Shown: positions 37,301 to 63,461 of the stretch, piece after piece
Numbering within the stretch: position 1 is the stretch's first letter
Layout of the letters: the number at the start of each line of letters is the position of its first letter
Assembly (NCBI GenBank): GCA_964106915.2
Contig: OZ066914.1
Reading direction: 5' to 3' (one strand)
Length of the DNA: 64,000 nt
DNA from: Podarcis gaigeae
Taxonomy: Eukaryota
Program-made: the position numbers and the translations under genes
Notes under the pieces: generated by a model
Databases searched by the model: none
Told to the model about the DNA's origin: nothing
Seen by the model: the letters and a program-made list of their open reading frames with translations, nothing else

Positions 37301-40300
37301 ATAGGACTTACGTCCAGGAAAAGGATGGGTATAGGATTGCATTCTAAATCAGTGTAGTGATTTGTGTCATCTTGTATGTCTGTGTGTTGCTTGTGATCTT
37401 GTAGTTTGACTGACATTATATAAAAAAGCTAAAGTAGCGGTGTCATGTCTTTAAAGTGCCTGAGGTACCCAAGAAAGTTGTCCCTGAAAAGAAGGTACCA
37501 ACTGCTCCTCCTAAAAAAATAGAGGCTCCACCTGCCAAAGGTACATCTCTTCTTATCTGTGTTATAACGTTCTTCTTTCATATTACTAATTATATGTGTG
37601 TTTTATCACAGACTGTCAAATATACGTTAGTAAGTTCTTGAGTTCATTTTTATTCATGCTTTATGAATTATGTGGTTTTCTTATACTTGGTAAACAATTT
37701 AAACAGCACCTACCTAAAACAGCACTGTATTTTTTAACATCTCTGAGGAAAAAATATCTGCTGTTATATCAAAGAAAATTCTTCCACCTAAGTTTGTTTT
37801 TGTGCATCTCTAAATATCTTGTAAAGAGAATTTATTATTAATCTTTTCTAACATCTTCTAGTCTATTACTATAGGCTACTAGCATTACAGGTATCTCTTT
37901 TTTATTTTTAAAAACCCTTCTTGTAATTATTTGATAGCTTTGGGTGGTTTTCTTTCTATATTTGCTTTGTATGCTTATGCACCAGCAAGTCTTTGAAATA
38001 ATGAAAAATTAATGCTATCTTTAAAGTGCCTGTGGTACGTAAGAAACCCATCCCTGAAGAACAGGTCACTGTTGAAAAATACTTCTATGAAGAATATGAG
38101 AAATATGAGACCTATGAGAAGACTGAGGAGTTTCTTCAGGTAGAAGAGGGTGAAGAACCTGAAGAATATGAGGAAGCCCCAGAACCTGAAAGATATGAAG
38201 AAGCTCCAGAAGAACCTGAAGTCGAGCAATACGAGGAAGCTCCAGAAGAATTTGAACAGTATGAAGAAGCTCCAGAACCGGAGGAACTTGAGTACTATGA
38301 AGAGGTTCAGGAGACCAAGGAGATTGAAGAATATGAGGAAGTGTATGAGGTTCCACCAGCAATAGGTATATTAATCACTTACCTGTTGTTTGTTGCTGCC
38401 CTGAGATTGAACCTTCTTTTGAATGCCCAAATTTCCCCTCCCCCCAAAAATCCACCCCAGTATTCCCTGCTTTTGTGCTTACAAGACTCCATTTGAGGGA
38501 CAGGTTTCCCAGAGTGGGTCAAACCAACTATGATGTTGTTACTGAAGAGTTTAAAAGCTAATTATGGGTGTATCCTCCTTTAATGATTAGAGACTTCTTC
38601 TGTAATTGTGATTACAGTCTTCTGAATTTGGCAATTTGGTTTCTTTGTAAATAACTAAAAGCTCCTTTGTAAAATGTTTTTCAAGTGCCTGAGGTGCCTA
38701 AAAGAGCCATTGCTGAAGAAAAAGTAAAAGTTGCTGTACCTAAAAAAGAGGAAGCTCCACCAGCTAAAGGTAGATAAAGTTGCTGAATCTGTTCCTTTGT
38801 GTACCCTGAAAAATCAGATGCCCTCATGGTTGACTGTTGTCCTTACATTTCAGTTTTCACTAGCATTAAGATTGCAGATAGGACATTAATTTTATTATGT
38901 CACTATGGGTTGTATCCATTGTTAGTCGTAGTCATAACAGACCCAATGAAATTAAAGGTCATGACTAACATAGGCCCATTAATTTCACTGTGTCTGCTCT
39001 GAGTTGGATACAAATCTGTTAGCTGAACTGTCTAAGGGCATGAGCTATGTATACATCTGGTAGCTTTTCCTCAGTTCTTTTAAGTCAATGCCTGGCCAGC
39101 TAGCGAGGAACTCCCCCAGCTTGGGCCTCTGACTGGCCAATGTGAACCTGGCGCTTCACTTGACAGAAAGTTGTACCCATGGCCATGACAACTGGGGGGA
39201 ATTCCCCATCAGCCAGCAACCATGTGTGTTCAGCTGCCAGGGGAGGAGACCTTCCAAAGTGGCTTTTCAGAGGAAGAATAGGACTTGAGGGAGGGTATAG
39301 TTGGATTGTGGTTCCAAACCACCTAAGTTTCATTACATTTAGTGGAACAGTTTCCTATATATGTAAGCAACTAGATAAGAGAAGGCAGATCAGTATAGCT
39401 AACAAACTGGGATAGATAATTTTTTTCCTTCTCTGTCGAACTTGACATTTAATCAATATTGCCCCTATGCGTCTGTGTCTCTTTTTAAACCCCTTCTGTC
39501 ATTTTGTGTGGCATTTTAAGTCTGTTTTGTTTATTCTTGCACTTGATTCGTAATTCAAAGAATGGCAAACTCTTAAAAGAAATACATGTTTTTAAAGTGC
39601 CCACAGCAAAAAAGAAACCAGAAGAAAAAGTACCTCTTGCTGTTCCTAAGAAAGAAGTGACTCCTCCACCTAAAGGTACATTCACTCTTCGCTATCTTGT
39701 GCATCTTTCATCTTCTCTCTGTGTATTTTGTATAAATGTGTTGTGCACCTTCAATGGTATGTTGTGTTTGTTCTGTATGTGTACGTATTCATGGTGTGTC
39801 CTTGTGTTTTGTGTTCCCTTCTTTTGTAATTATGTATATAGCATTCATGTAAGATTCATAAATAACTAAACAAAAGTATTGTATCTTTAAAGTGCCTGAG
39901 ATACCTAAGAAAGCTGTTCCTGAAGAAAAAGTGCCTAAGACTGTTCCCAAAAGGAAAGAGCCTTCACCAACTAAAGGTAGATTCAGTAGTAAGACAGAAA
40001 GAATATTGACATTCCTGTGTTCTTGTCTATGGTGTTATCACTAACGCCTCAGAAGAGAACTTTCAGCAATGTGCACATTATTTTAGAAGTGTGTATTTCT
40101 CCAAATAAGCTTGAGTACATGCTCTATCTTTAAAGTGCCTGACATTCCCAAGAGAGCCGTCCCTGAAGAAAAAGTATCCATCACTACCTATGAAGCAGAA
40201 GAACCTCCCACAGTAAAAGGTAGATGAAATTTTGAATAGGCAAGAACAAAAAAAGTATATCTTCATCAGTGTAGTTGCGTGATCAGTGTGCTTAGATCAC

Positions 40301-43300: not shown

Positions 43301-46300
43301 ATCTCTAATTAGCAGAGCAAAAGGTTAGAATTAGTTAACCTTGAAGAAGGCCTGCTTCTGTGACTAAATGGAAAGTATAAGTTTATTCCACAATAAATAC
43401 GGCTGGGCTCTCTGTTTGTTGGTCATAGTCTTTTGTTATGTCTTTTTTGTCCTATGCTTTTTACAAGTATGATTTTGCATGTCTCAAAGAAAACTAATAT
43501 CTTTAAGATACAGAAACATATGAGGAAATGCTTCTAGAAGAAATGGAAGAACGGTATCCTGCCACCATTCCTAGGAAACGTGAGGTTGCACCTCCCAAAG
43601 GTATATTCTCTCTTCAAGGAAAACGTAAAGCTACCAAAGTCACAAAAGTGACATATTTTCATTATTTTGCTCTTGTTCAGTTTGATGCTACTATTTGAAT
43701 TTTGTGGTTTTAAAATTCTTACAAGGGAATTGATTTTATTTAAAGTGTCTGAGGTGCCCAGAAAAGGAGTGGCAGAAGAGAAGATATCCATTGCAAAGCA
43801 TGAAAAAACAGAATTAGTTTCTGTACATAAAAAAGCAGAACTTACTGAAGTATCTCAGATAACGCAGCCTCAAGCACCAGAAAGGAAGACAGCTGCTCAT
43901 AAACCCACAAAACCAGAATCTATTGCTGTATCAAAGCCAGCAGAGCCTGAGGTGCCAAAACAGAAGCTACTTGTTGCCAAACCCAGAAAACCACAACCCG
44001 TTGTGGAGCCTGAAGTGCAAGAAGAGGAGATAGATATTGCTGAACCTGAGGAACCCATACCTGTTGCAGTTTATGAGGCGGTCGAACCTCATGTGCCAGA
44101 AAAGAAGAAAGTCGTTGCTAAACCTAAAACACCAGAGCCTGTTGTGATGCTTAAAACAGTAGAGTCAAAACAGGAGATAGCTGTTGCCAAACCCAGAAAA
44201 CCAGAACCTCTTGTGGAGCTTAAAACAGAAGAGTCTGAGGTGCCAGAAAAGAAGCTAATCATTGCTAAACCTAAAAAAACAAAACCTGGTGTGGTCCCTA
44301 AAACAACAGAGCCTCCAGTGCGAGAAGAGCAGATGGCTGTCTCCAAACCTAGGAAACCACAACCTGTTGGGTTTCCTCAAACAGTAGAGCCTGAAATGGA
44401 GGAAGAGGAGATAGATATTGCTGAACCTGAGGAACCAAAACCTGTTGTAGTTCTTGAGACGGTAGAACCTCATGTACCCAAAAAGAAGGTTGTTGCTAAA
44501 CCTAAAAAACCAGAACCTATTATGGTGTCTAAAATAGTGGAGCCTCCAGTGCCAAAACAGAAGATAGCTGTCACTGAACCCAGAAAACCAGGACCTGTTG
44601 TAGAGCCTGAAACAGCAGAGCCTGAAGTGCTGGAAGAGCAGGTAGTTGTCTCCAAACCCAGAAAACCAGAATCCATTGTCATGGCTCAGATGGTACAGTC
44701 TGAAGTGGAAGAAGAGGGGGTAGATATTGCTGAACTCAAGAAACCAAAACCCACTTCAGTTCTTGAGGCAGTTGAACTTCATGTGCCAGAAAAGAAAGCA
44801 GTTGTTGCTAAACCTCAAAAAACAGAGCCTCTGGTGCCTGAGCCTCCTGCACCAAAACAGAAGATAGCTGTCACCAAACCCAGAAAACCACAACCTGCTT
44901 TGGTGCCTGACATAGAAGGGCCTGAAGAGGAAGAAAAGAAGGCAACCATTGCTAAACCTAAAAAAACAGAGCTTGGTGTGGCTCCTAAAATAGCAGAGCC
45001 TTACATGCCAGAAGACAAGATGGCTGTTGCCAAACCCAGAAAACAGGAATTCATTGTCATGCCTCAGATGGCAGAGCCTGAGCTGGAAGAAGAGACAGAT
45101 ATTGTGGAACCTGAGAAACCGAAACCTATTGCTGTTCTTGAGTCAGCAGAACCTCGTGTGCCAGAAAAGGAGGTAGCCGCTGCTAAACCTAAAAAACCAG
45201 AACTTATTGCAGTGCCTAAAACAGTAACGCTTCCAGCGGCAAAACAGAAGATGGCTGTCACCAAACCCAAAGAACCAGAAGTTGCCATGGTGCTTGAAGT
45301 GGAAGTGGAAGAAGAAAAGAGAGCAAAATCCGGGGAGCCAGAACCTACAGTGGTGCCTGAAACAGTTTGGTGGCAAGAGCCAGAGGAAAAGGCAGCTGTT
45401 TCCAAACCCAGAAAACCAGAGCCTGCTGTTGTGCTTGATGCAGCAGAGGCTCAAATACCAGAAGAGACTGTGATGGTTGCTAAGCCTAAAAAACAAGACC
45501 CTTATGCTGTGCCTGCAACAGAGTCTCCACCATTAAAAGGTAGACGTCATTCCCAAAGGGAAATGACACTCTTGGCTTAAGAAATGTTTGTCTTGTTTGT
45601 GGGGAAAAAAATCTTCTTTGTTTCATGTTAGTTTATAAATTTTGTACAGGCAACTTTTCTTGTCATACGTAAATGTGAATGTGCCTAATTAATGTCAATG
45701 TTTGGTGTCAAGTCTTTATGGTCTTGCTGTTATTTATCTTTATTGTGGCTTCTTCAGTTCGTACAATTAACACAATCTAATATCTTTATTGAAGTATCTG
45801 GTTTATCCAAGAAACCTGTTCTAGACAAGTGCTGACAAAAAGCAAAAAAACAGAAGCTCTGCTGGGTAAGAAAGAAAGTAAAAAAAGAACTTATCTCTTC
45901 TTGTTTCCTGATAATCTTGTGTCCCAAAAAGTTCCCATGCTGATTTTTGCAGAAATAGGAATATCATTTGCAGCTATATTCTTACCTTCCCTTTATAAAC
46001 AAATATGACGCAATACATAATAAAACATGAGGTCAGATGCCAGGATGAAAGGGGAAATGCTAATTATGATAACAATTAATAATAATAAACATACCCAAAC
46101 CACTGTCAGGAAGGTAACAGCTGTGGGAGTAATCTTACAAAACAGATATATCAGCAGGTATTTTGAAATCTTTCAAATGTTCAGTTGAGTTCAACCGTTT
46201 CCATCAGCCCATAAAAGATAACTACTTATATATATGAATGAAGGACCTGTATAGGGGGGAATTTTTATCCTAGTGCCTTCTCTTCAGTCACTTGAACGAT

Positions 46301-52300: not shown

Positions 52301-55300
52301 TACATTTTTATAGTCTTTTTGATCACATTGAGCAAGAAAAGCCAGAGGTTTATGAGCTGCCAGTGACATTTAGGTTGCATTGAGCTTGGTGAGTCGCAAA
52401 GAAGTTGGTGGTATGCCTAGGCAATGCATGTCAATAATAAATCAAAATACAAAATATCAACAGGCCAAAGAAGACATGTAAACTTCCAGTTGTGTTGTGT
52501 CATCTTCCAATAAGGTGGCAAAATTCTTGTCAAAGGCATAAACTTATTCATTATCCATTAAAGTCATTGGATGTTAATGTGAACATCCTATTAATATGTA
52601 CTTGGATTTTACCATCAGTTTGAGTATATCATTGGGTTTTGAGAATTAAGGAGAACATCTTAGGAATATATGATGGCCCAGAAGAAAATATTTATGAAAT
52701 ATTTATCAGTTCATATATAGTCATCAGTAATCGAGAAATATAACCAAGACTAAAACCACTCCAATTTTTTACAGATTTACTGTTTATGAGGAGTGGGGAT
52801 GTAATACTATCTTGTCACAGTGGGATTGTAAATGCATTTTCTTTGTTTGTATTTGATACCCTTGTTTTCTATCTGCATTGTCTGAATTAGTGATTGTTTT
52901 AATGAAAGAGAAAAGTGAGAGGCTGAGACAGATCTTCAATGTTATGTAGTAGATAATGTTGTATATCGTCATGTTTTGTGTCTCGCGGTTTCTTGATCTC
53001 ATAATCTTGCACATTGCATTTAGAATTAATAATAGTAAAACAAACAAATATCTTTAAAGTGCCAGAGGTGCCCAAGAAACCTGTGCCTGAAGAGAAGGTC
53101 CCTACGCTCAAAAAGAAAGAACCACCAACACCTAAAGGTATATGTTGTATCTGAAGCGAAAAACATCATTTTCTTATTCTCTTGATCATTGATCATCTTT
53201 TGGATATCCTTATGAGTCTATGTCATGCATCCTTTTGAGTAGCTTTCTGTGCTTAGCATCTCCATCCTCATAGTTCTACTGGTGGTACAAGTGGATTGTA
53301 CTTCATGGTAGTTTGTTGTTACAAGATTCTGGGGACAAAAGCATGCATGCCCCCTCACCTTACATCTCGAGCTTTGACATTTTCCCATCTTTTACATTTC
53401 ATTGTGCTTTCAAAATTCAATAGTAAGCATTAACTAATATCTTTAAAGTGCCAGAAGTGCCCAAGAAGGCTGTTGTCGAAGAGAAAGAACCAACTCCCGT
53501 GCTTAAAAAGCCTGTACTTAAGGAACCAGAGCCTCCTCCTGTTAAAGGTACATTTCAGCATTAATGCAGTTATAAAGAATGTGGTTTTGATGCAGGTGTT
53601 TAAAGCAGATGTCTGGGAGATTCTTGTTCTGTCTGTGCTCCGTTGCTTAAAATTTCTTTTGTAAACAATACTGTTGGTTCAGTCCAGTGTGTGAGAGAGA
53701 AAGTGCTTAGCTGTGCTGAACTTCATCATGACTGCTTTCTCTGTGTCCTAGTATGCAAAAACACAATTGCTGATTTTGTTATAATTGTGCATTATGTTTC
53801 AATCTTCTTCGTCATATTAGCTACATATCTTTTGCCCCTTCTTAAAAGTAAAACTAATCTCTTTTAAGCACCCAAAGTACTTCGGAAAACTGTGCCAGTT
53901 TAAAAAGTAACTCTTGTTTTACCTAAAGAACCAGAACGCTTTGCTGTGTCTGAAGAAGAGACCATTAGTGTTTATGAAGAAGAAAAAGTCACTGTTGAAT
54001 ATGAAGAAGAAGTCGTCACTGTTGTTGCTGAAGAACGTGAACCTGCTATTGTGCCTAAGAAACCCAAGCCTACCATTGTCCCTAAGAAACCAGAAGCTGC
54101 AGCCGTGCCGAAACCACCAAAAGCTGTACTTAAAAAACCAGAACGCCCACCTGCTAAAGAGACCTTGGAATATGAAGAAGAACGAGAGGTGCAAACGATT
54201 GTTGGGTACAGAGAGCGAACACATGTTTCTGTCCACCAGGACATAGAGGCTATAGTTGCGCTTGAAGAACCCGAGAGTGCTTCAGCTTTTGAGATCACAG
54301 AGCCTGAGCAATACTTTATTGAGGAATCAGAGGAGATTATTTCACTTGAAGGACCCGAAGTTGTCCCAGAAGAACCAGAAGCCGTTGCTGCTCCAGAAGA
54401 AACGAAACCTGCTATTGTGCCAAAAAAGCCAAAGCCTACTGCTGTAGCTAAAAAGCCAGAACCTGCGGCTGCACCCAAGAAACCAGAACCTATTGTGGTG
54501 CCTAAAAAGCCGAAACTTGCTCCTGTACCTAAAAAACCAGAGCCTCAGAAGCCAGAACCCTTGTTTAAAAAGCCAGAACGCCCACCACCAGCTAAAGAGA
54601 TCGAAGAGCACGAAGAGGAACGAGAGGTGCAGACTTTTATTGGAAAGAGAGAGCGACAACATGTTTCCGTCCACCTAGACATAGAGGCCATAACTCCTTT
54701 TGAGGAACCTGAGAGCGCTGCAGCTTATGAGATGGAAGAAGAAGAACAATACGTCATTGAGGGGTCCGAGGACATCGTTTCCCTTACAGGACCTGAGCCT
54801 GTTGCTGTCCCTGAGGAACCCCAAGTCGTTGCTGCTCCTGAGGAACCTAAGCCTGCTCTTGTGCCCAAGAAACCCAAGCCTGTTGCTGCGCCTAAGAAAC
54901 CTGAACCCGAAGCTGCTCCCAAGAAACTGGAACACGTCGTGGTGACGAAAAAGCCGAAACCTGCCGCTGCGCCTAAAAAACCAGAGCTTGCGGCACCGCC
55001 CAAGAAGCCCGAACCCTTGTTCAAAAAACCAGAACGCCCACCAGCTAAAGAGATCGAAGAGCACGAAGAGGAACGAGAGGTGCAGACTTTTATCGGAAAG
55101 AGAGAGCGGCAGCATGTTTCCGTCCACCAAGACATAGAGGCCATAACTGCTTTTGGGGAACCTGAGAGCGCTGCAGCTTATGAGTTGGAAGAGGCAGAAC
55201 AATACGTCATTGAGGGGTCTGAGGACATTCTTGCACTTGAAGCACCTAGAGCTGCTCCTGAGGAACCAGAAGTCATTGCTGCTCCTGGAGAGCCTACGGA

Positions 55301-58300
55301 AGTACCTAAGAAACCAGCAAAAGGTATATGGCATAATCTTTTCCAGTACAACAAGTATGTCTTCCTTAAAGCAGAATGTTGACAAGCGTTGCTCTGCCAA
55401 CTTTCTGCTGAGCAATTCGAAAAACTGCTCTTGTAAACAAAGTTGTTGTGTGTATACATTGGTGTGTGGGTGTGTGAAAGAGAGAAAGGTTCTTTCTGAT
55501 TCTGCAAAGCAATTTGCTTAGGCCTGCAAGAATCTGAAATTTCCATTATTAATTGACGTGAAAGTAAAAAAAAAAAACCTTAAATGTATGAATGGAAACA
55601 GATTCAGGAAGGATTATTCATTTGAAGCTGGATGAAGGTGATGTCTGATGTGCCTGTGGGTTGATGGATCTATTTTTTCCCTGTCTTTTAACAAACCAAC
55701 TAATATCTTTAAAGTGCCTGAGGTACCCAAGAAAGCTGTCCCAGAAAAGAAAGTACCAGTTCCTGTGGCTAAAAAAGTCAAACCGCCACCAGCTAAAGGT
55801 ATATGACCACACCTAAAGAAGAAAATTTCTTTGTTCTTCTTAAAATACTCTCTTCTTCTGTACTGTCTCTCCTATAGTTTTTGCTTGACTGAAATAACCT
55901 AGTGTTCATTTTATAATACGAACTCTGTATGTATAATACGAAGTCTGTATGTCTCTAGATACGATGTACGTCTATGTATCTGTAGCATTAATCTTGCTTT
56001 TGATAATTCTTCGTTCCTCTTCTTAACATCTTGGTACCTCTTACTTCAATAATTCTCAAAGTAAAAATAGAAATATTATCTTTAAAGTGCCTGAAGAGCC
56101 CAAGAAAGTTGTTCCCGAAAAGAAAAAACCAGCTGCTGCACTTAAAAAACCAGAAGCTCCTCCCACAAAAGGTACTTTTATCATTCACAGAGAAAATCAT
56201 TATCTTGCTTGCTGCGTTTGGTTCAGCTGTTGGATTTGTAAATCGTACTAATGTGTACAAATGACAGGCTGAGCCTAACTTGGGAGGGGATGGGGGTGAG
56301 GGAGTGTTTGTGTCCAAACACAATAGGTAACTTCAATACCTTCAGCAGCTCCGCTTTTGCTTTTAATGCCTTGTTTGTTTTACCTACATGAAAGTAAAAC
56401 TAATTAACATTTCTTGAAGTCCCTGAAGTCCCTAAGAAAACTGTGCCAGAAGAAGAGGCCCCTCTTGCTGTTCCTAAAAAGCCGGAACCTCTGCCTGCAG
56501 AAGGTAGCTCTCCCTATTAATCACGACGTCATTCTTATCCAGACTGCTATGTCTGTTTTGTTTGGTCTTACATTTTATGTGGTCCTGTATGTATATGTAA
56601 GGCGGGGGTGGTGGTAGAGGACTCTGTCTGTTCTTTATGATGTCCATCTGTTGAAAGTTAACAGTCTGCCTTTCCTACCTTATTGTGGATTTAAAGCCAC
56701 AGCCTTTAATGGCTGCAAGCAATTCTAACCGTGGAAAACCCATGCTTAGAATCTCGAACATTTGAATGAAACACAGCTGCATCAAATAGTTGCTTCGTAC
56801 AAAATTGGACCTTATCAGGCCATCAAAGCTGCCCCAACTTCTTTGAAGGGGAAAAACACATGTATATATAAAAAAAATCTGTGAATCTGATGGCAACAAT
56901 CCTTTTTTAAAATATGTGTGAATATAATCTGGACATACACTTTTCAAAAGCCCCATCAAATGCACAATATATTATATAGGCCTTTGTGCAGAGGGCTGCA
57001 GAGGGTTCCTAGAGGCCTGATGCAATTTCTGTTTACGAAAGCATCCATTTAAGGGCCTTCCATCCATTTATGTAAAAAAATACACTCTGACACTGGTGTG
57101 TTTGTTTGTGACTGTGTATGTTGTAATAATGTCCCCGCTATTTTGTGCAATATGTCTCCAATTCTTCTTGCCATTTGATCTTTTAAATGGCAATCTTATC
57201 TTCGTTGTCAATATTCTTTAAAGAGCCAGAAGTTACAGAGGAAATTGAACCGGAAGAACCAGTACCTGTTCCTATTCCAGAAACAGAGGAGATAATTCCA
57301 GATGAAGGTATATACTAAAGTGTGAATGAAATATACCAATTTCTTTTGCACCATCTCCATCTTGCTGAGTAAGAATTAGGTGTGTTTGTTCCGTGATGTG
57401 TACACTCCAGTATGTTTTGTTTTGTTATTTTTATGTGTGTGTTTGTATGCGTGTATTTCCTACGTTGTATTGCTTTCTGTAACTGTGTTGGTGATTCCCA
57501 TTATCTTTGACCATGTAAACACCTTTCCCTCTTAATTGGCTTGGAAGTTTACTAATGACTTTTTCAAAAACTTTCTTGAACCTATGGGCCATCAGATATT
57601 TTGAGCTGAGTTGTTTATTTTGGCACTTGCATTACTGGGAGTTTTACGAATGGAGTCTATAAAAGCAGTTTATTTCCTTTGTTACATTAGATGGTTTACA
57701 TCTGAGGTTTATATAGTATAATTACATTAGCACTGAATCTACCGCAATATCATTTAAAGAACCAGAACCGGAGAAGAAGATACCTGAAAAACCCAAACCC
57801 CGTGTACCTTTCCCACCAAAAGAGGAGGTTAAAGAGGAAAAGGTTCAGCTTAAAGGTATCAGCAGCGACCCCAACAGTATTTAACAACTTTTACTAAGCC
57901 CCAGTTTTATAACTAATGCCTATTGACACATAATAATGTTCTTTGAAAGTGTGGACTTTAGGCTGCCATCCTATTCCCACTCACCTGGGAGTAAGCCTGA
58001 TTAAACTTACTTTTGAGTAGGTGTGTATAGGATTGCGCTGTTAATATATTAATGTAAGTCTAACTTAATGTTGTCTGAATGGTTTTCAGTCTAATGTCCC
58101 TACTCACTGATGGTTTTCATTTTTTTATTGTTTCTAAATTTGTAATTAGGGTTTGCAATCCAGATAGTTAATTTTACCTGTGCTCTAAGGCCTTATGCAT
58201 GGTGTAGAAAACCTCCCGTTACATTCAATCAGTCACTGTGCTTTGCAGATAGAGAGCCTCCTTCAGATACCATCTTACCAAGAGCTTTGTTCCACATAAT

Positions 58301-61300: not shown

Positions 61301-63461
61301 GGATAAACTCGATTAATGCATCAGGGAAGTCAAAATATATGAATTCAGCTTCCGCATAAAACAAATATTTTTTTTAAGTGCCGGAGGTTGAAAAGAAGAA
61401 AACTGAGATCCCAGCTTTCAAGAAAAGGGAAGAAAAAGAAAAACCTGTGCCTGAACCAGCAAAAGGTACAAACATGCAGTGCTCTTATACAGTGCTTATA
61501 CAACTAAAACCGCATTTGATCTTGAATATTGGTCTGTGAGCTGCACTAATCTTTAAAACAAGCCAGCTATAAATGCTCCCATCTTTGTGCTCTTCCAGCT
61601 GCTCCTTAATTCTTCATGCAGTACCTCATTTCTTCTTCTTCTTCTTCATTAAATGTCCTCTTATTTGTCTTTATATGGTTCAAGCCTGTTCTGTTCCCCT
61701 GAAGTAGTATATGAATTTCTTTAAGGCTTCTGTTAACTGTGCTGTTTGTCTCTCCAACTATTTTAATGCATTTTGTTGGCTTTGCAATGTTCTGTTAAAA
61801 AAAATAATTGATTGAACTACTTGTTATTTTTTTTGTTCAAAGTTCCAGAGCCTAAACCAGCCACAATTCCTGAACCAAAGCCTGCTACAGGTAGGACATT
61901 TTGAAACCACTGATTATAGACCATTTTCCTCCAATCTAGTTAACTCTGGTGTTAGCATAAAATCAATGGAGCACCAATATAATTTGAGCTTTTTTGAATC
62001 CCACCCTACGTCCTTATGTGCTGGTGCAACTCCTTGTTTTATCAGACTGTGGGCTTACATTTTAGCATTTGTAAATTATGCAATCACATTTGAGAATTCT
62101 GTAGTGTTCTGCTTATGTTTTGCTTGTTAAAGATCCATTCCAACAAGTTTGCTTCATCCCAGCTAATACCACTGTCTGTTTCTGTAAGAAACTAAGGCAG
62201 GTGAAAATCTATTTCACGATTCTAAGAAGTACTAGCAGTTCAAATCTATTCAGAAGTAAGCCCCATTGCCTTCAATGGGACTTACTCCCAGATAAATATG
62301 TGTAGGATTGCAGACTAAAAGGATTTTTTAAAAATGTGTATTGTCTAATGTTAATCATTGTTGTGCAGAAGTAGGTCCACTTAACTCAGTGTGGCCTTCC
62401 TAGTATGTGTGTTGAGGATTGCAACCTCAATAAATATATATATATATATATTAACTTTTTCTACAGCCCTAAAATCTCCTAAGCCTCCCGCAGAACCCAA
62501 ACCTGAAGCAGCTCCTTTAACAACGCCAGTGGTTGGAAAGAAAGCAGGTATGACTATTACTTCAGTAATATATTCAAGGGCGGGACTGTATTATTATTCT
62601 GTAATATATTCAAGAGCAGGGTTGTATCACAATTCTATGAACTTTTGTATGAGTAGTCATGAGCACAACAATCATGAGAGAGTTTAAATGTTCTTACTCA
62701 CAAAAATATTTACAATACACAACTCACTCAAGAACCTTTAGGGATCACATCTTGTTGTGCTATCAGTGTTCTTCAACGTCGAGTCTTCAGATGTGGTTGG
62801 ACTACAACTCCCAGCCTCCTTAATCAATGGTGAAGGGAGATGTAGTGCAACAACATTTTGGGCCCAAACCTTGAATGGACACTGTCCTAAATAACATGCA
62901 CATGTATAACCCCAATACAGTCTCTGCCACACATCTTTCACCCAGGACTCAATGATAGCAGATGGGGAAATGGGTACACTTAGCGGGAGGGCTTGAGGGT
63001 CCAAGAAGATGACACGACCATTACCACGAGGGAGGGAAATGAGGCTGAATTAAACCATTCATTCATTCATTCATTCATTCATTCATTCATTCATTTGAAT
63101 ATGCACAACTTCTCAGAAGTAATATGAATGCAAGAAGAAGCAACNNNNNNNNNNNNNNNNNNNNNNNNNNNNNNNNNNNNNNNNNNNNNNNNNNNNNNNN
63201 NNNNNNNNNNNNNNNNNNNNNNNNNNNNNNNNNNNNNNNNNNNNNNNNNNNNNNNNNNNNNNNNNNNNNNNNNNNNNNNNNNNNNNNNNNNNNNNNNNNN
63301 NNNNNNNNNNNNNNNNNNNNNNNNNNNNNNNNNNNNNNNNNNNNNNNNNNNNNNNNNNNNNNNNNNNNNNNNNNTTATCTAATACTGCTGTTGCTGTTTT
63401 ATGTCAGAGCCTAAAACTACACCAAAGGAAGAAGCTGGCAAGGCTAAACTTCCTATTAAAG
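1..63461 (+). CDS. TTN: Titin, partial multi-exon CDS: I-band tandem Ig, N2A element and PEVK region (about 93 exons; gene extends beyond both ends of the window)
   Basis: Spliced exons give titin-type Ig domains (PP.F...C...G..P..V.W.K...D.G.Y.C.A.N..G), the N2A unique sequence ([47 protein letters not shown]) and dozens of VPEVPKK...PPAK modules, all with GT-AG introns and consistent phase. Confidence 0.99.
524..811 (+). CDS. TTN: TTN tandem Ig exon (288 nt)
   Basis: CAG| [12 protein letters not shown]...[10 protein letters not shown] |GTAAAT. Confidence 0.95.
971..1249 (+). CDS. TTN: TTN tandem Ig exon (279 nt)
   Basis: TAG| [11 protein letters not shown]...SCTTQLFVK |GTTTGT. Confidence 0.95.
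1348..1626 (+). CDS. TTN: TTN tandem Ig exon (279 nt)
   Basis: TAG| [11 protein letters not shown]...SQSTVSIL |GTTTGT. Confidence 0.95.
1739..2017 (+). CDS. TTN: TTN tandem Ig exon (279 nt)
   Basis: TAG| [11 protein letters not shown]...SCSALLTVQ |GTGAAT. Confidence 0.95.
2921..3208 (+). CDS. TTN: TTN tandem Ig exon (288 nt)
   Basis: CAG| [12 protein letters not shown]...SSAKLILT |GTTTGT. Confidence 0.95.
3408..3695 (+). CDS. TTN: TTN tandem Ig exon (288 nt)
   Basis: TAG| [12 protein letters not shown]...SCTAQLNIK |GTACTG; TAGAAG tandem acceptor. Confidence 0.95.
4364..4654 (+). CDS. TTN: TTN tandem Ig exon (291 nt)
   Basis: CAG| [12 protein letters not shown]...LCTSSVVIK |GTCAGT. Confidence 0.95.
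5716..6003 (+). CDS. TTN: TTN tandem Ig exon (288 nt), last Ig before N2A (I79 equivalent by position)
   Basis: CAG| [12 protein letters not shown]...SCKSKVTIK |GTACAG. Confidence 0.95.
6072..6313. mobile_element. Tc1/mariner (Tigger-like) MITE
   Basis: TA-CAGTGGTACCTC...GAGGTACCACTG-TA terminal inverted repeats with TA target duplication; internal AACCTGAA repeats. Confidence 0.85.
6689..6784 (+). CDS. TTN: TTN N2A exon: linker and start of I80 (96 nt; missed by ORF track)
   Basis: CAG| [32 protein letters not shown] |GTAAGC. Confidence 0.93.
6910..7192 (+). CDS. TTN: TTN N2A exon: I80 and start of UN2A
   Basis: CAG| [19 protein letters not shown]...EGDLRAKLK |GTAAGT (phase 2 end). Confidence 0.95.
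7870..8170. mobile_element. Penelope-like element fragment
   Basis: GTAGCCGTG.TGGTCTG...GTAGCACCTTAGAGACCAAC...AAGCTTTC...TCTTCAGATAC resembles reptile Penelope terminal repeats (from recall); boundaries approximate. Confidence 0.55.
8282..8465 (+). CDS. TTN: TTN N2A unique sequence (UN2A) exon
   Basis: TAG| [61 protein letters not shown] |GTAAAT. Confidence 0.97.
8977..9066 (+). CDS. TTN: TTN UN2A exon (90 nt)
   Basis: CAG| [30 protein letters not shown] |GTAGTT. Confidence 0.95.
9178..9445 (+). CDS. TTN: TTN N2A Ig I81 exon
   Basis: CAG| [10 protein letters not shown]...[14 protein letters not shown] |GTAAGT. Confidence 0.96.
9532..9792 (+). CDS. TTN: TTN N2A Ig I82 exon
   Basis: CAG| [10 protein letters not shown]...[10 protein letters not shown] |GTTTGT. 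Confidence 0.96.
10296..10505 (+). CDS. TTN: TTN N2A Ig I83, first exon
   Basis: CAG| [17 protein letters not shown]...HNVTADDE |GTAATG. Confidence 0.96.
10612..10689 (+). CDS. TTN: TTN N2A Ig I83, second exon (78 nt)
   Basis: CAG| [26 protein letters not shown] |GTTAGT. Confidence 0.95.
10811..10837 (+). CDS. TTN: TTN 27-nt micro-exon at the N2A/PEVK junction
   Basis: long pyrimidine tract CAG| EIKLEVKPP |GTAAAG. Confidence 0.92.
11461..11490. repeat. (ATTCC)6 microsatellite
   Basis: direct reading. Confidence 0.9.
11903..11950 (+). CDS. TTN: TTN PEVK exon (48 nt)
   Basis: CAG| [16 protein letters not shown] |GTAAAC. Confidence 0.88.
12061..12117 (+). CDS. TTN: TTN PEVK exon (57 nt)
   Basis: CAG| [19 protein letters not shown] |GTATTA. 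Confidence 0.85.
12234..12311 (+). CDS. TTN: TTN PEVK exon (78 nt)
   Basis: TAG| [26 protein letters not shown] |GTACTA. Confidence 0.9.
12900..12977 (+). CDS. TTN: TTN PEVK exon (78 nt)
   Basis: CAG| [26 protein letters not shown] |GTAAAG. Confidence 0.88.
14193..14237. repeat. (TAT)15 microsatellite next to a splice acceptor
   Basis: direct reading; ends 7 nt before exon 14245. Confidence 0.95.
14245..14484 (+). CDS. TTN: TTN PEVK E-rich exon (240 nt)
   Basis: TAG| [10 protein letters not shown]...[27 protein letters not shown]...QIRKE |GTATGT. Confidence 0.92.
14785..15494 (-). mobile_element. 5'-truncated L1/Tx1-like LINE fragment, interrupted by a Sauria SINE
   Basis: 14-bp TSD GCAGAAAATATTTC at 14771-14784 and 15495-15508; A/T tail at left end; minus strand reads [10 protein letters not shown], like a squamate L1 ORF2 C-terminus (from recall). 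Confidence 0.7.
14830..15172 (-). mobile_element. Sauria SINE
   Basis: (AAAGGT)n tail at left, tRNA-like head (reverse complement GGGATGCGGGTGGCGCTGTGGG) at right; TSD TTTACAAGCGTA/TTTACAAATGTA. Confidence 0.92.
15769..15861 (+). CDS. TTN: TTN PEVK exon (93 nt)
   Basis: CAG| [31 protein letters not shown] |GTATGG. Confidence 0.87.
16053..16130 (+). CDS. TTN: TTN PEVK exon (78 nt)
   Basis: TAG| [26 protein letters not shown] |GTAATA. Confidence 0.85.
16765..16830 (+). CDS. TTN: TTN PEVK exon (66 nt)
   Basis: AAG| [22 protein letters not shown] |GTACAA; in-frame alternative CAG at 16770. Confidence 0.85.
17757..17840 (+). CDS. TTN: TTN PEVK exon (84 nt)
   Basis: TTTAAAG| [28 protein letters not shown] |GTAACT. 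Confidence 0.85.
18161..18211 (+). CDS. TTN: TTN PEVK exon (51 nt)
   Basis: TCTTTAAAG| [17 protein letters not shown] |GTAGAT. Confidence 0.82.
18639..18701 (+). CDS. TTN: TTN PEVK exon (63 nt)
   Basis: TCTTTAAAG| [21 protein letters not shown] |GTAGAT. Confidence 0.87.
18767..18903. mobile_element. hAT-type palindromic MITE
   Basis: CAGGGTTTCCCAAA...TTTGGGAAACCCTG TIRs; 8-bp TSD ATTTAAAC/GTTTAAAC. Confidence 0.85.
19087..19152 (+). CDS. TTN: TTN PEVK exon (66 nt)
   Basis: [22 protein letters not shown]; AAG/GT. Confidence 0.9.
19462..19542 (+). CDS. TTN: TTN PEVK PPAK exon (81 nt)
   Basis: [27 protein letters not shown]. Confidence 0.92.
20177..20538 (+). mobile_element. Sauria SINE
   Basis: GGGACGCGGGTGGCCCTGTGGTCTAAACC head; GCAGTTCGAAAGCAC...GGCCACATGACCCGGAAG core; TTTACCT tail. 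Confidence 0.92.
20678..20761 (+). CDS. TTN: TTN PEVK PPAK exon (84 nt)
   Basis: [28 protein letters not shown]. Confidence 0.92.
21083..21163 (+). CDS. TTN: TTN PEVK PPAK exon (81 nt)
   Basis: [27 protein letters not shown]. Confidence 0.92.
21508..21579 (+). CDS. TTN: TTN PEVK PPAK exon (72 nt)
   Basis: [24 protein letters not shown]. Confidence 0.92.
21797..21868 (+). CDS. TTN: TTN PEVK PPAK exon (72 nt)
   Basis: [24 protein letters not shown]. Confidence 0.9.
21924..22386 (+). mobile_element. Retroposed LINE 3'UTR-like fragment with (AAT)n tail
   Basis: TSD AAAAAGACTATTG (21911-21923) / AAAAAGACCATTG (22387-22399); T-rich body, AATAAA, then (AAT)n. Confidence 0.7.
22539..22622 (+). 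CDS. TTN: TTN PEVK PPAK exon (84 nt)
   Basis: [28 protein letters not shown]. Confidence 0.92.
22752..23490. mobile_element. hAT-type non-autonomous element, interrupted by a Sauria SINE
   Basis: TIRs CAGGAATGGGGAACCT ... AGCTTCCCCATACCTG. Confidence 0.65.
22893..23272 (+). mobile_element. Sauria SINE
   Basis: GGACGTGGGTGGCGCTGTGGTCTAAGCC head, CCTTTACGTTTA tail; TSD CCTCCTTGAGTA/CCTCCTTGGGTA. Confidence 0.92.
23694..23798 (+). CDS. TTN: TTN PEVK exon (105 nt)
   Basis: [35 protein letters not shown]. Confidence 0.92.
24850..25008 (+). CDS. TTN: TTN PEVK poly-E exon (159 nt)
   Basis: CAG| [20 protein letters not shown](EREEEISY)n...EVT |GTATGC. Confidence 0.85.
25888..26008. mobile_element. 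hAT-type MITE, degraded
   Basis: CAGGGATGGAGAACC...TCCCTG ends; shares the ATGGGAGTTGTAGTCC core with the 18767 and 47249 copies. Confidence 0.6.
26164..26217 (+). CDS. TTN: TTN PEVK exon (54 nt)
   Basis: CAG| [18 protein letters not shown] |GTATAC. Confidence 0.8.
26652..26735 (+). CDS. TTN: TTN PEVK PPAK exon (84 nt)
   Basis: [28 protein letters not shown]. Confidence 0.92.
26773..26907. mobile_element. hAT-type MITE
   Basis: TIR TAGGGTTGCCATA...TATGGCAACCCTA; perfect 8-bp TSD GGCAAAAT. Confidence 0.88.
27118..27183 (+). CDS. TTN: TTN PEVK exon (66 nt)
   Basis: [22 protein letters not shown]. Confidence 0.9.
27513..27593 (+). CDS. TTN: TTN PEVK exon (81 nt)
   Basis: [27 protein letters not shown]. 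Confidence 0.9.
28031..28114 (+). CDS. TTN: TTN PEVK PPAK exon (84 nt)
   Basis: [28 protein letters not shown]. Confidence 0.92.
28936..29019 (+). CDS. TTN: TTN PEVK exon (84 nt)
   Basis: [28 protein letters not shown]. Confidence 0.92.
29335..29409 (+). CDS. TTN: TTN atypical PEVK-region exon (75 nt)
   Basis: TAG| [25 protein letters not shown] |GTATGA; phase 1-1; resembles exon 17757. Confidence 0.72.
30802..30885 (+). CDS. TTN: TTN PEVK exon (84 nt)
   Basis: [28 protein letters not shown]. Confidence 0.9.
31054..31380 (+). CDS. TTN: TTN PEVK poly-E exon (327 nt)
   Basis: [19 protein letters not shown](QYEEEEVT)n...VPPPPPPAK |GTAACA. Confidence 0.92.
32040..32420 (+). mobile_element. 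Degraded tRNA-derived SINE (Squam3-like) containing a nested MITE
   Basis: tRNA-like head GGACTGTGGCT..GTGGTAAA.CATCTGCTTTG..TGTAGAAGGTTC..GTTTCAATCCCTGGC and GAGCTAGATGGACC.AGTGGTCTG 3' part. Confidence 0.55.
32148..32351. mobile_element. Tc1/mariner-type MITE
   Basis: TA-CAGTCACACCTTGG...CCAAGGTATGACT TIRs. Confidence 0.7.
32626..32712 (+). CDS. TTN: TTN PEVK PPAK exon (87 nt)
   Basis: [29 protein letters not shown]. Confidence 0.92.
32891..32968 (+). CDS. TTN: TTN PEVK PPAK exon (78 nt)
   Basis: [26 protein letters not shown]. Confidence 0.92.
33282..33359 (+). CDS. TTN: TTN PEVK PPAK exon (78 nt)
   Basis: [26 protein letters not shown]. Confidence 0.92.
33397..33538. mobile_element. 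hAT-type MITE (same family as 18767)
   Basis: CAGGGTTTCCCCAAACTT start and CTGCTAGCTAGGGAT core. Confidence 0.75.
33814..33897 (+). CDS. TTN: TTN PEVK PPAK exon (84 nt)
   Basis: [28 protein letters not shown]. Confidence 0.92.
34159..34242 (+). CDS. TTN: TTN PEVK PPAK exon (84 nt)
   Basis: [28 protein letters not shown]. Confidence 0.92.
34422..34502 (+). CDS. TTN: TTN PEVK exon (81 nt)
   Basis: [27 protein letters not shown]. Confidence 0.9.
35302..35656 (-). mobile_element. Sauria SINE
   Basis: (AAAGGT)n tail at left; perfect 12-bp TSD TTTAACAGGGTA at 35290 and 35659. Confidence 0.93.
36081..36164 (+). CDS. TTN: TTN PEVK PPAK exon (84 nt)
   Basis: [28 protein letters not shown]. Confidence 0.92.
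36545..36619 (+). CDS. TTN: TTN PEVK PPAK exon (75 nt)
   Basis: [25 protein letters not shown]. Confidence 0.92.
36748..36822 (+). CDS. TTN: TTN PEVK PPAK exon (75 nt)
   Basis: [25 protein letters not shown]. Confidence 0.92.
37064..37138 (+). CDS. TTN: TTN PEVK PPAK exon (75 nt)
   Basis: [25 protein letters not shown]. Confidence 0.92.
37252..37345. mobile_element. Short palindromic MITE (ATCCTAT...GTAAGTCCCATTG...GGACTTAC...ATAGGAT family)
   Basis: about 90-bp hairpin; related degraded copies near 7261, 48410, 52110, 57960 and 62245. Confidence 0.6.
37457..37540 (+). CDS. TTN: TTN PEVK PPAK exon (84 nt)
   Basis: [28 protein letters not shown]. Confidence 0.92.
37739..37791 (+). pseudogene. 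Relic of a PEVK exon (pseudo-exon without acceptor)
   Basis: reads [18 protein letters not shown] but is preceded by TATTTTTTAAC (no AG) and ends CCTAA-GTTTGT. Confidence 0.6.
38027..38365 (+). CDS. TTN: TTN PEVK poly-E exon (339 nt)
   Basis: [26 protein letters not shown]...(YEEAPE)n...EVPPAI |GTATAT. Confidence 0.92.
38686..38769 (+). CDS. TTN: TTN PEVK PPAK exon (84 nt)
   Basis: [28 protein letters not shown]. Confidence 0.92.
39598..39675 (+). CDS. TTN: TTN PEVK exon (78 nt)
   Basis: [26 protein letters not shown]. Confidence 0.92.
39893..39976 (+). CDS. TTN: TTN PEVK exon (84 nt)
   Basis: [28 protein letters not shown]. Confidence 0.92.
40136..40219 (+). CDS. TTN: TTN PEVK exon (84 nt)
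   Basis: [28 protein letters not shown]. Confidence 0.9.
40720..40803 (+). CDS. TTN: TTN PEVK exon (84 nt)
   Basis: ACTAATATCTTTAAAG| [28 protein letters not shown]. Confidence 0.87.
41436..41519 (+). CDS. TTN: TTN PEVK exon (84 nt)
   Basis: [28 protein letters not shown]. Confidence 0.88.
41661..41741 (+). CDS. TTN: TTN PEVK exon (81 nt)
   Basis: [27 protein letters not shown]. Confidence 0.9.
42187..42273 (+). CDS. TTN: TTN PEVK exon (87 nt)
   Basis: [29 protein letters not shown]. Confidence 0.88.
42462..42542 (+). CDS. TTN: TTN PEVK exon (81 nt)
   Basis: [27 protein letters not shown]. Confidence 0.87.
43508..43600 (+). CDS. TTN: TTN PEVK exon (93 nt)
   Basis: [31 protein letters not shown]; in-frame alternative CAG at 43513. 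Confidence 0.85.
43746..45539 (+). CDS. TTN: TTN giant PEVK exon (1794 nt, 598 codons)
   Basis: TTTAAAG| [17 protein letters not shown]...ATESPPLK |GTAGAC; open throughout (ORF 43667..45580); internal 26-aa-type repeats. Confidence 0.88.
45795..45865 (+). pseudogene. Frameshifted PEVK pseudo-exon / candidate poison exon
   Basis: CTAATATCTTTATTGAAG| [13 protein letters not shown] (TGA 45833-45835) ...GG|GTAAGA; 71 nt. Confidence 0.7.
46597..46680 (+). CDS. TTN: TTN PEVK PPAK exon (84 nt)
   Basis: [28 protein letters not shown]. Confidence 0.92.
47042..47116 (+). CDS. TTN: TTN PEVK PPAK exon (75 nt)
   Basis: [25 protein letters not shown]. Confidence 0.92.
47249..47384. mobile_element. hAT-type palindromic MITE
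   Basis: TIR CAGGCTTCCTCAA...TTGAGGAAGCCTG; perfect 8-bp TSD CACTAAAC. Confidence 0.9.
48585..48659 (+). CDS. TTN: TTN PEVK PPAK exon (75 nt)
   Basis: [25 protein letters not shown]. Confidence 0.92.
48830..49014. mobile_element. Tc1/mariner-type MITE
   Basis: TA-CAGTAGTACCTTGG...CCAAGGTACCACTG-TA. Confidence 0.82.
49134..49217 (+). CDS. TTN: TTN PEVK PPAK exon (84 nt)
   Basis: [28 protein letters not shown]. Confidence 0.92.
49260..49377. mobile_element. hAT-like MITE
   Basis: TIR CAGGGCTATTTTTC...GAAAAATAGCACTG; internal GCCGGAACTC and TCTGGCACCTCT repeats. Confidence 0.7.
49764..49788. repeat. (TG)n microsatellite
   Basis: direct reading. Confidence 0.9.
49852..49935 (+). CDS. TTN: TTN PEVK PPAK exon (84 nt)
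   Basis: [28 protein letters not shown]. Confidence 0.92.
50230..50313 (+). CDS. TTN: TTN PEVK PPAK exon (84 nt)
   Basis: [28 protein letters not shown]. Confidence 0.92.
50616..50687 (+). CDS. TTN: TTN PEVK PPAK exon (72 nt)
   Basis: [24 protein letters not shown]. Confidence 0.92.
51126..51194 (+). CDS. TTN: TTN PEVK PPAK exon (69 nt)
   Basis: [23 protein letters not shown]. Confidence 0.92.
51840..51911 (+). CDS. TTN: TTN PEVK PPAK exon (72 nt)
   Basis: [24 protein letters not shown]. Confidence 0.92.
53060..53137 (+). CDS. TTN: TTN PEVK PPAK exon (78 nt)
   Basis: [26 protein letters not shown]. Confidence 0.92.
53449..53547 (+). CDS. TTN: TTN PEVK exon (99 nt)
   Basis: [33 protein letters not shown]. 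Confidence 0.92.
53908..55323 (+). CDS. TTN: TTN second giant PEVK exon (about 1.4 kb; acceptor uncertain: start 53908, 53929 or 53935; the consensus acceptor giving start 53869 leads to a stop)
   Basis: open frame from 53904 to donor AAAG|GTATAT at 55323 (ORF 53946..55382); three internal repeats of about 150 aa. Confidence 0.75.
55715..55798 (+). CDS. TTN: TTN PEVK PPAK exon (84 nt)
   Basis: [28 protein letters not shown]. Confidence 0.92.
56088..56171 (+). CDS. TTN: TTN PEVK PPAK exon (84 nt)
   Basis: [28 protein letters not shown]. Confidence 0.92.
56420..56503 (+). CDS. TTN: TTN PEVK exon (84 nt)
   Basis: [28 protein letters not shown]. Confidence 0.92.
57224..57307 (+). CDS. TTN: TTN PEVK E-rich exon (84 nt)
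   Basis: [28 protein letters not shown]. Confidence 0.9.
57760..57855 (+). CDS. TTN: TTN PEVK exon (96 nt)
   Basis: [32 protein letters not shown]. Confidence 0.9.
59587..59830. mobile_element. Tc1/mariner-type MITE
   Basis: TA-CAGTGGCACCTCAGTTTTC...GAAAACTGAGGTAACACTG-TA. Confidence 0.82.
60134..60211 (+). CDS. TTN: TTN C-terminal PEVK exon (78 nt)
   Basis: [26 protein letters not shown]. Confidence 0.9.
60791..60886 (+). CDS. TTN: TTN C-terminal PEVK exon (96 nt)
   Basis: [32 protein letters not shown]. Confidence 0.9.
61379..61465 (+). CDS. TTN: TTN C-terminal PEVK exon (87 nt)
   Basis: [29 protein letters not shown]. Confidence 0.9.
61843..61890 (+). CDS. TTN: TTN C-terminal PEVK exon (48 nt)
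   Basis: [16 protein letters not shown] |GTAGGA. Confidence 0.87.
62467..62547 (+). CDS. TTN: TTN C-terminal PEVK exon (81 nt)
   Basis: CAG| [27 protein letters not shown] |GTATGA. Confidence 0.92.
63056..63094. repeat. (CATT)n microsatellite
   Basis: direct reading. Confidence 0.9.
63145..63374. other. Assembly gap (230 N)
   Basis: run of n. Confidence 1.
63408..63461 (+). CDS. TTN: TTN C-terminal PEVK exon (54 nt)
   Basis: CAG| [18 protein letters not shown] |GTAAGA. Confidence 0.92.

Follow-up and report, generated by a model that had tools for sequence, protein, structure and literature searches.

How can a titin exon begin behind a consensus splice acceptor, meet an in-frame stop within its first codons and still be followed by several hundred open codons? 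This question is raised by a 64,000-nt stretch of DNA from Podarcis gaigeae (the window; all positions are counted from its first letter), whose content is the N2A/PEVK part of the vertebrate titin gene on the + strand. The original prediction had read the second giant exon in phase 1 from the acceptor at 53868 into a TAA at 53901-53903, with a frame that then stays open for about 470 codons. It had named as possible reasons an acceptor moved downstream, a choice between a nonsense and a productive isoform, and a truncating allele or sequencing error in an exon of low inclusion. The reading itself holds in the sequence. In phase 1 the TAA is codon 12 behind the AG at 53867-68, and after it 473 codons are open up to the donor after 55323. 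Here we argue, with a probability of roughly 0.78, that the acceptor has shifted in frame by 60 nt (old site 53868, new site 53928), a move that made intron of the first 20 codons of the exon and keeps the TAA out of the productive mRNA.

The exon map of the window comprises Ig-domain exons, the N2A element and about 65 PEVK-type exons, all on the + strand. The N2A exon (8289-8462) matches the titin structure PDB 7nip_A with an E of 3.3e-22, an exon upstream matches the Ig I-set profile, and the PPAK motif (PF02818) was found above cut-off in two of the three neighbouring short exons tested. A search of the genome G000 (1.51 Gb, 211 contigs) for copies of N2A recovered a single full match, that is, one titin N2A locus, and this rules out a pseudogene copy of titin. 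Further features of the window were recorded along the way. The first giant PEVK exon (43746-45539; 1794 nt, phase 1-1) is free of stops. Tandem-repeat exons rich in E and Y lie at 31054-31380 and 38027-38365, with EEAPE-like units among their repeats, and a run of 230 N occupies 63145-63374. At several PEVK exon starts two in-frame AGs lie 9-24 nt apart with both frames open (36730/36748, 39580/39598, 46573/46597 and 48585/48594); these pairs are candidate tandem acceptors. Eleven of 61 acceptors, all between 40720 and 56420, have an ACTAAY motif no more than 30 nt away (expectation about 0.8), and in nine cases its A lies exactly 11 nt before the exon. The acceptors with this motif cluster in the block that holds both giant exons, which may reflect shared ancestry by duplication or QKI sites.

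A stop within a live exon start is unusual. None of the 59 paralogous exon starts compared has an in-frame stop within its first 60 nt (two exons shorter than 60 nt were left out), so a stop in the start of a live exon would be odd, whereas 1504 of 2100 intronic 60-mers (72%) contain one. Part of the stretch is contained in 22 of 24 runs, with DNA available under eight organism codes. None of the 24 is recorded as RNA and six are RNA by guess, which carries no information on expression. Four of the runs were compared over 53490-54330, namely X3 (organism A, the closest to the window), X15 (organism H, DNA), X17 and X19. No contig of X3 or X15 covers the stop, a result without weight since a filter removes some contigs. 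An unspliced contig of organism H (X19 record 2) covers 53659-54270 with 12 differences in 612 bases and no gaps. None of the 12 falls on the AG at 53867-68, the TAA at 53901-03 or the AG at 53927-28. Organism H, which is about 2% diverged from the window, thus carries the same TAA. The stop is therefore real and common to two species, and neither the sequencing error nor the truncating allele that had been considered accounts for it.

The acceptor in use was read from a contig of organism I. This contig (X17 record 1; 852 nt, depth 139) aligns with 53490-53542 and then directly with 53924-54330, with no letters in between. Five letters fit both sides of the joint, and the sole cut with GT..AG ends leads from 53547 to 53929 and removes an intron of 381 nt. 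In organism I the acceptor used is the AG at 53927-28, and the place of the TAA lies inside the skipped intron. This joint comes from one contig of one run, the RNA status of which is a guess, and contigs drop rare forms. The joint is known from organism I and the TAA from organism H, neither of them from the window species' own reads, and we infer that Podarcis gaigeae splices as organism I does. Further joints in the run alignments (54071/54073-54132, 54254-54028 and 54330-54040) were read as internal repeats of the exon and not as rearrangements. The proposal that the acceptor moved downstream is supported by the joint, yet the site is 53928 and not 53907, which had been highlighted.

Phase-1 AGs end at 53868, 53877, 53898, 53907, 53928, 53934 and 53955. 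Those at 53907, 53928 and 53934 had been pointed out correctly, whereas the two additional ones upstream of the stop, 53877 and 53898, had been missed; both were rejected as rescuing acceptors, as the stop would be kept. To score the sites we used a matrix of 25 intronic and 3 exonic bases built from 58 window acceptors, one per exon, which were chosen by sequence alone; the matrix favours the family motif. Its background consists of 4257 other AGs and includes the old site itself and a few true exons that were first missed. The old acceptor at 53868 scores 13.3 bits, a value reached by five of the 4257 other AGs (the count including the site itself), and the leave-one-out median of true sites is 15.4. 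The new acceptor at 53928 scores 3.4 bits, a value that 113 of the 4257 other AGs reach and that six of the 58 true sites do not exceed. No other AG lies between it and 53910, and upstream of it are 12 pyrimidines in 16 positions, 21 nt free of AG and a branch-like TAAC at a distance of 18 nt. Such an AG arises readily, as 15 of 59 paralog exons likewise carry one at exon nt 59-60. The AG at 53907, where GTTTAAAAAG had been thought to resemble the family acceptor, does not bear out this likeness. It scores -5.2 bits, as low as one of the 58 true sites and matched or exceeded by 794 of the 4257 other AGs, and just 9 nt before it are free of AG. We rejected it for this score and because the X17 joint does not use it, and likewise the AG at 53934 (-13.6 bits), which is not the X17 joint either.

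Table 1. Features around the stop-bearing start of the second giant PEVK exon (window positions).
Feature	Position	Strand	Basis
Upstream PEVK exon, 99 nt, phase 1-1	53449..53547	+	Exon map; donor GT 53548-49 is the 5' side of the X17 joint
Intron removed in organism I, GT..AG, 381 nt; contains the TAA	53548..53928	+	X17 joint
Likely ancestral acceptor, intact; AG 53867-68, ACTAAT 53853-58	53844..53868	+	13.3 bits; unchanged in organism H
Relic of the former exon start, 60 nt (20 codons), probably intron today	53869..53928	+	Paralog identity; T and GAA make-up
In-frame TAA in the relic	53901..53903	+	Lys at the aligned position in P0002; same letters in organism H
Phase-1 AG, poor acceptor, not seen in use	53906..53907	+	-5.2 bits; passed over in X17
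Predicted branch site (TAAC, A 53910) and pyrimidine tract (53911-53924) of the new acceptor	53908..53924	+	Sequence; branch use predicted
Acceptor AG seen in use in organism I	53927..53928	+	X17 joint; 3.4 bits
Second giant titin exon (PEVK/E-rich), 465 codons in 1395 nt, phase 1-1, three repeat units	53929..55323	+	3' end placed by donor consensus; 5' 400 nt on the joined contig

The 60 nt between the two acceptors have the look of a former exon start. They are identical to the best paralog start at 40 of 60 positions; the intronic background reaches a mean of 22 and a maximum of 30 in 2000 draws, and for live paralogs compared among themselves (34 exons) the median is about 47. The composition has drifted. 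The relic has 17 T, a number that none of the 59 paralog starts attains (maximum 15), and a single GAA, as few as in one of the 59 paralogs (median 4); both measures were chosen after looking, and the paralogs are not independent. At the level of sequence, these comparisons show a PEVK exon start, since decayed, as the origin of the 60 nt.

The ancestral state of the relic could be approached through a distant ortholog. One real relative was found in the protein collections, P0002 (with P0011, two residues apart), which is a gene call on a 1330-nt contig. It aligns to the N-terminal end of the exon with a score of 80 (shuffle mean 26, none of 2000 as high) and to the C-terminal end with a score of 57 (shuffle mean 19, none of 2000 as high), where the alignment extends into the read-through of the next intron. 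Over the relic P0002 reads MPVKKVPVAAPHEPERF, a PEVK-like run with Lys at the stop. Organism H has Met at the first aligned position, as P0002 has, which supports the register of this alignment. The claim that paralogs have PEEK where the window has the stop stands for the paralogs, with EE at codons 11-12 in 18 of 34 and EK in 11 of 34, but not for the distant ortholog. Since P0002 reads P-V-K-K there, the V is old, and the change was probably confined to the stop codon. The ancestor probably used the relic as coding sequence, and a single base change would suffice for the stop. Furthermore, P0002 has His-Glu where the window has Lys-Glu, and because His codons end in C or T it cannot have an AG at the place of 53928. 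Its frame, as read from the gene call, is open over the aligned nine codons before the new site. In the species of P0002 an upstream acceptor would appear to be used; an AG one codon pair later could also serve there as acceptor. P0002 was the one match of the near-length protein search, and a further search gave nine matches with one real relative. P0003, P0005, P0008 and P0009 were discarded as low-complexity chance matches, and P0004, P0006, P0007 and P0010 were left out. No relative of the exon was found among 243 shorter candidate proteins or among 925 longer ones (829-2365 aa; full-length titins lie outside the searched lengths), and these length ranges yielded no ortholog with an annotated boundary. 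A metagenome scan returned 314 pattern matches, none of them confirmed.

The part of the exon behind 53929 behaves as a working coding exon. If it ends at the donor after 55323, its length is a multiple of three. Its P+E+V+K share is 0.58 and exceeds the threshold of 0.54 that is given for PEVK_Finder in the available text of PMC6469411. It lies in the TTN locus behind N2A, with PPAK-motif neighbours, a symmetric phase 1-1 and a length of 3n; in the exon itself (P0001) the 27-residue PPAK motif gave no PF02818 match at E<=0.1. It is a long, lineage-restricted, E-rich exon. Its three repeat units are marked by EEEREVQT at aa 83, 229 and 380, compared with two similar units in P0002; the number of units differs from lineage to lineage. 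A comparison of the window with organisms H and I gives 14 distinct changed sites over 53929-54330, 10 of them synonymous and 4 nonsynonymous. The synonymous share expected without selection is 0.23-0.28 (P 1.5e-4 to 9e-4), and the exon beyond 53929 is shown to be under purifying selection. Organism I has a 3-nt in-frame insertion behind 53956. The idea of a low-inclusion or dying exon is not supported, given these changes and the joined contig, on which the exon is present. At the other end, the read-through of the intron start (55324-55356) resembles GSWHNVFSTTK of P0002 and looks conserved; it is possibly a splicing-regulatory element near the donor.

A shift of the acceptor could have proceeded as follows. 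Substitutions in the old codons 14-21 would have created a branch-like TAAC, a T-rich tract and the AG, and the purine-rich (GAA), enhancer-like motifs typical of such exon starts would have been lost. Exon definition would then have moved to the new site 60 nt downstream. The released 60 nt could take a change of the AAA-to-TAA type at no cost; the few transcripts in which 53868 was still used would be degraded by NMD. We infer that the new acceptor arose before the stop. The intron would have grown from 321 nt with the old acceptor to 381 nt with the new one, and the protein would have 20 residues fewer in its disordered spring. The site within the ancestral exon is used in a relative, as the X17 joint from 53547 to 53929 shows, and the reading frame is kept, the 60 nt lying between two phase-1 sites. 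Mutation of the ancestral site, which is usual for such shifts and not strictly defining, is not seen. A point against a shift is the old acceptor, which has stayed intact with a score above that of the new site (13.3 versus 3.4 bits). Minor use of the old acceptor, hidden by NMD, may persist; rare splicing at 53868 could escape notice because contigs drop rare forms and NMD thins the stop-containing form. The shift belongs to a known class of events; it is the ordinary explanation and in our view the best reading.

The intact old acceptor is also the starting point for a reading in which both sites are kept in regulated use, with 53868 giving a nonsense isoform by tissue or stage that is degraded by NMD and tunes the titin level, and 53928 giving the productive form. 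A stop is a target of NMD when a junction follows at a distance of more than about 50 nt. Here 1420 nt separate the TAA (53903) from the donor at 55323, enough to trigger it, and NMD and contig assembly alike would hide the stop-containing form. In human TTN, too, alternative sites occur near canonical ones, 16 of 19 of them in frame (PMC5874998, as far as its available text goes). We nevertheless regard such regulation as unlikely. The X17 contig, at depth 139, runs unbroken across the joint. The old acceptor is strong and unchanged in organism H, but 25 unchanged nt are expected at 2% divergence, and the relic differs from organism H at 1 of 60 sites compared with 4 of 210 in the preceding intron, which, with so few changes, gives no sign of extra constraint. 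The relic has also lost the GAA motifs of its paralogs, with one left. A version with a defined switch, to which we give similarly low odds, would have QKI and SF1 compete at the upstream ACUAA and thereby choose between the NMD-destroyed form (53868) and a productive 465-residue spring insert (53928). QKI represses exons with ACUAA branch sequences, and competition of QKI and SF1 at ACUAA has been described (both from the available part of PMC13004596). As ACTAAY precedes 11 of the 61 window acceptors, it is a family trait and not particular to the stop-bearing exon, and a QKI block is doubtful as a sufficient cause, the motif being common to many window acceptors. That the former first 20 codons of the exon were made into an AS-NMD dial, with the old acceptor kept on purpose, is improbable as well.

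The same end state would be reached in the reverse order, if a nonsense change in codon 12 came first, was tolerated via a latent in-frame AG, and this AG was strengthened later (the Catania-Lynch route). The lost piece is short, 3n and stop-containing, as predicted by the stop-first model in the accessible text of PMC2586383. The old site survives, in-frame AGs that could serve as latent acceptors are common at the same exon position (the 15 of 59 paralogs), and the enrichment in T beyond all paralogs could reflect later selection. These points are met by others that make this order hard to credit. Unless splicing had already moved to the new site, a nonsense codon within an included titin exon would do serious harm, as human titinopathy suggests (PMC5874998, in the part available). 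The 72% of intronic 60-mers that contain a stop by chance mean that a stop after intronization needs no special cause, and no intermediate species was seen. Finally, an assembly error, a private truncating allele or a dying exon is very improbable: in the runs compared no read or contig of the window species lies over the site, but the same TAA is present in organism H, and purifying selection, the in-frame insertion in organism I, 465 open codons and the presence of the exon on the joined contig speak against an exon that is dying or little used.

With the shift from 53868 to 53928 as preferred reading, the locus offers a tidy example of exon-boundary drift in the titin spring region, with the old acceptor still intact. 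It is also a warning for annotation, since pipelines guided by homology or consensus would choose 53868 and report a false truncating mutation in titin. Boundary shifts of this kind can, we reason, disturb alignments used for positive selection; positive selection on titin in several squamate branches is reported in the available text of PMC12961865. As many close relatives are sequenced, the order of stop and new acceptor could be traced on a tree, a small test of stop-first intronization. A greater importance would follow only if the old acceptor was a regulated NMD switch. No paper on the exon came up in the literature searched on titin or PEVK in lizards and squamates and on poison or alternative acceptors, and the available text of PMC6469411, PMC12961865 and PMC11033294 does not describe it.

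Among known systems, poison (AS-NMD) alternative 3' splice sites are alike in that splicing at the upstream site would place a stop a long way ahead of the following junction; here the joint at 53928 alone is seen, and the stop-bearing segment gives no sign of extra conservation. Human TTN PEVK exons, in the portion of PMC5874998 available, likewise have alternative sites near canonical ones, mostly in frame. There, minor alternatives stand beside a working canonical site, whereas here a stop follows the canonical-looking site, and the inner site alone is seen in use. Catania and Lynch (2008; PMC2586383, available text) put forward the hypothesis of stop-linked intronization, in which, as in our case, a short, 3n, stop-containing exonic piece is spliced out; here an existing intron is lengthened from 321 to 381 nt and no new intron arises. 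Splice-site shifts come closest. In the accessible parts of the sources, CESAR lists 360 real cases in four mammals, mostly of 3-6 nt and up to 429 nt (PMC4914097), TOGA2 finds shifts of over 1000 nt (10.64898/2026.06.30.735536), and 56 of 85 human-specific sites are splice-site shifts (PMC3538075). The 60 nt found here exceed the usual 3-6 nt, though shifts from 30 to over 1000 nt are reported in these texts. In the usual account the ancestral site is mutated (PMC4914097, as available), whereas here the ancestral AG and its context are intact, and the released piece contains a stop, whereas no premature stop is given among the tandem cases in the available text of PMC3538075. What the locus has in common with the mammalian shifts described in these three sources, as far as their available text goes, is the outcome: the ancestral exon becomes shorter through a new in-frame acceptor within it, and frame and gene stay intact.
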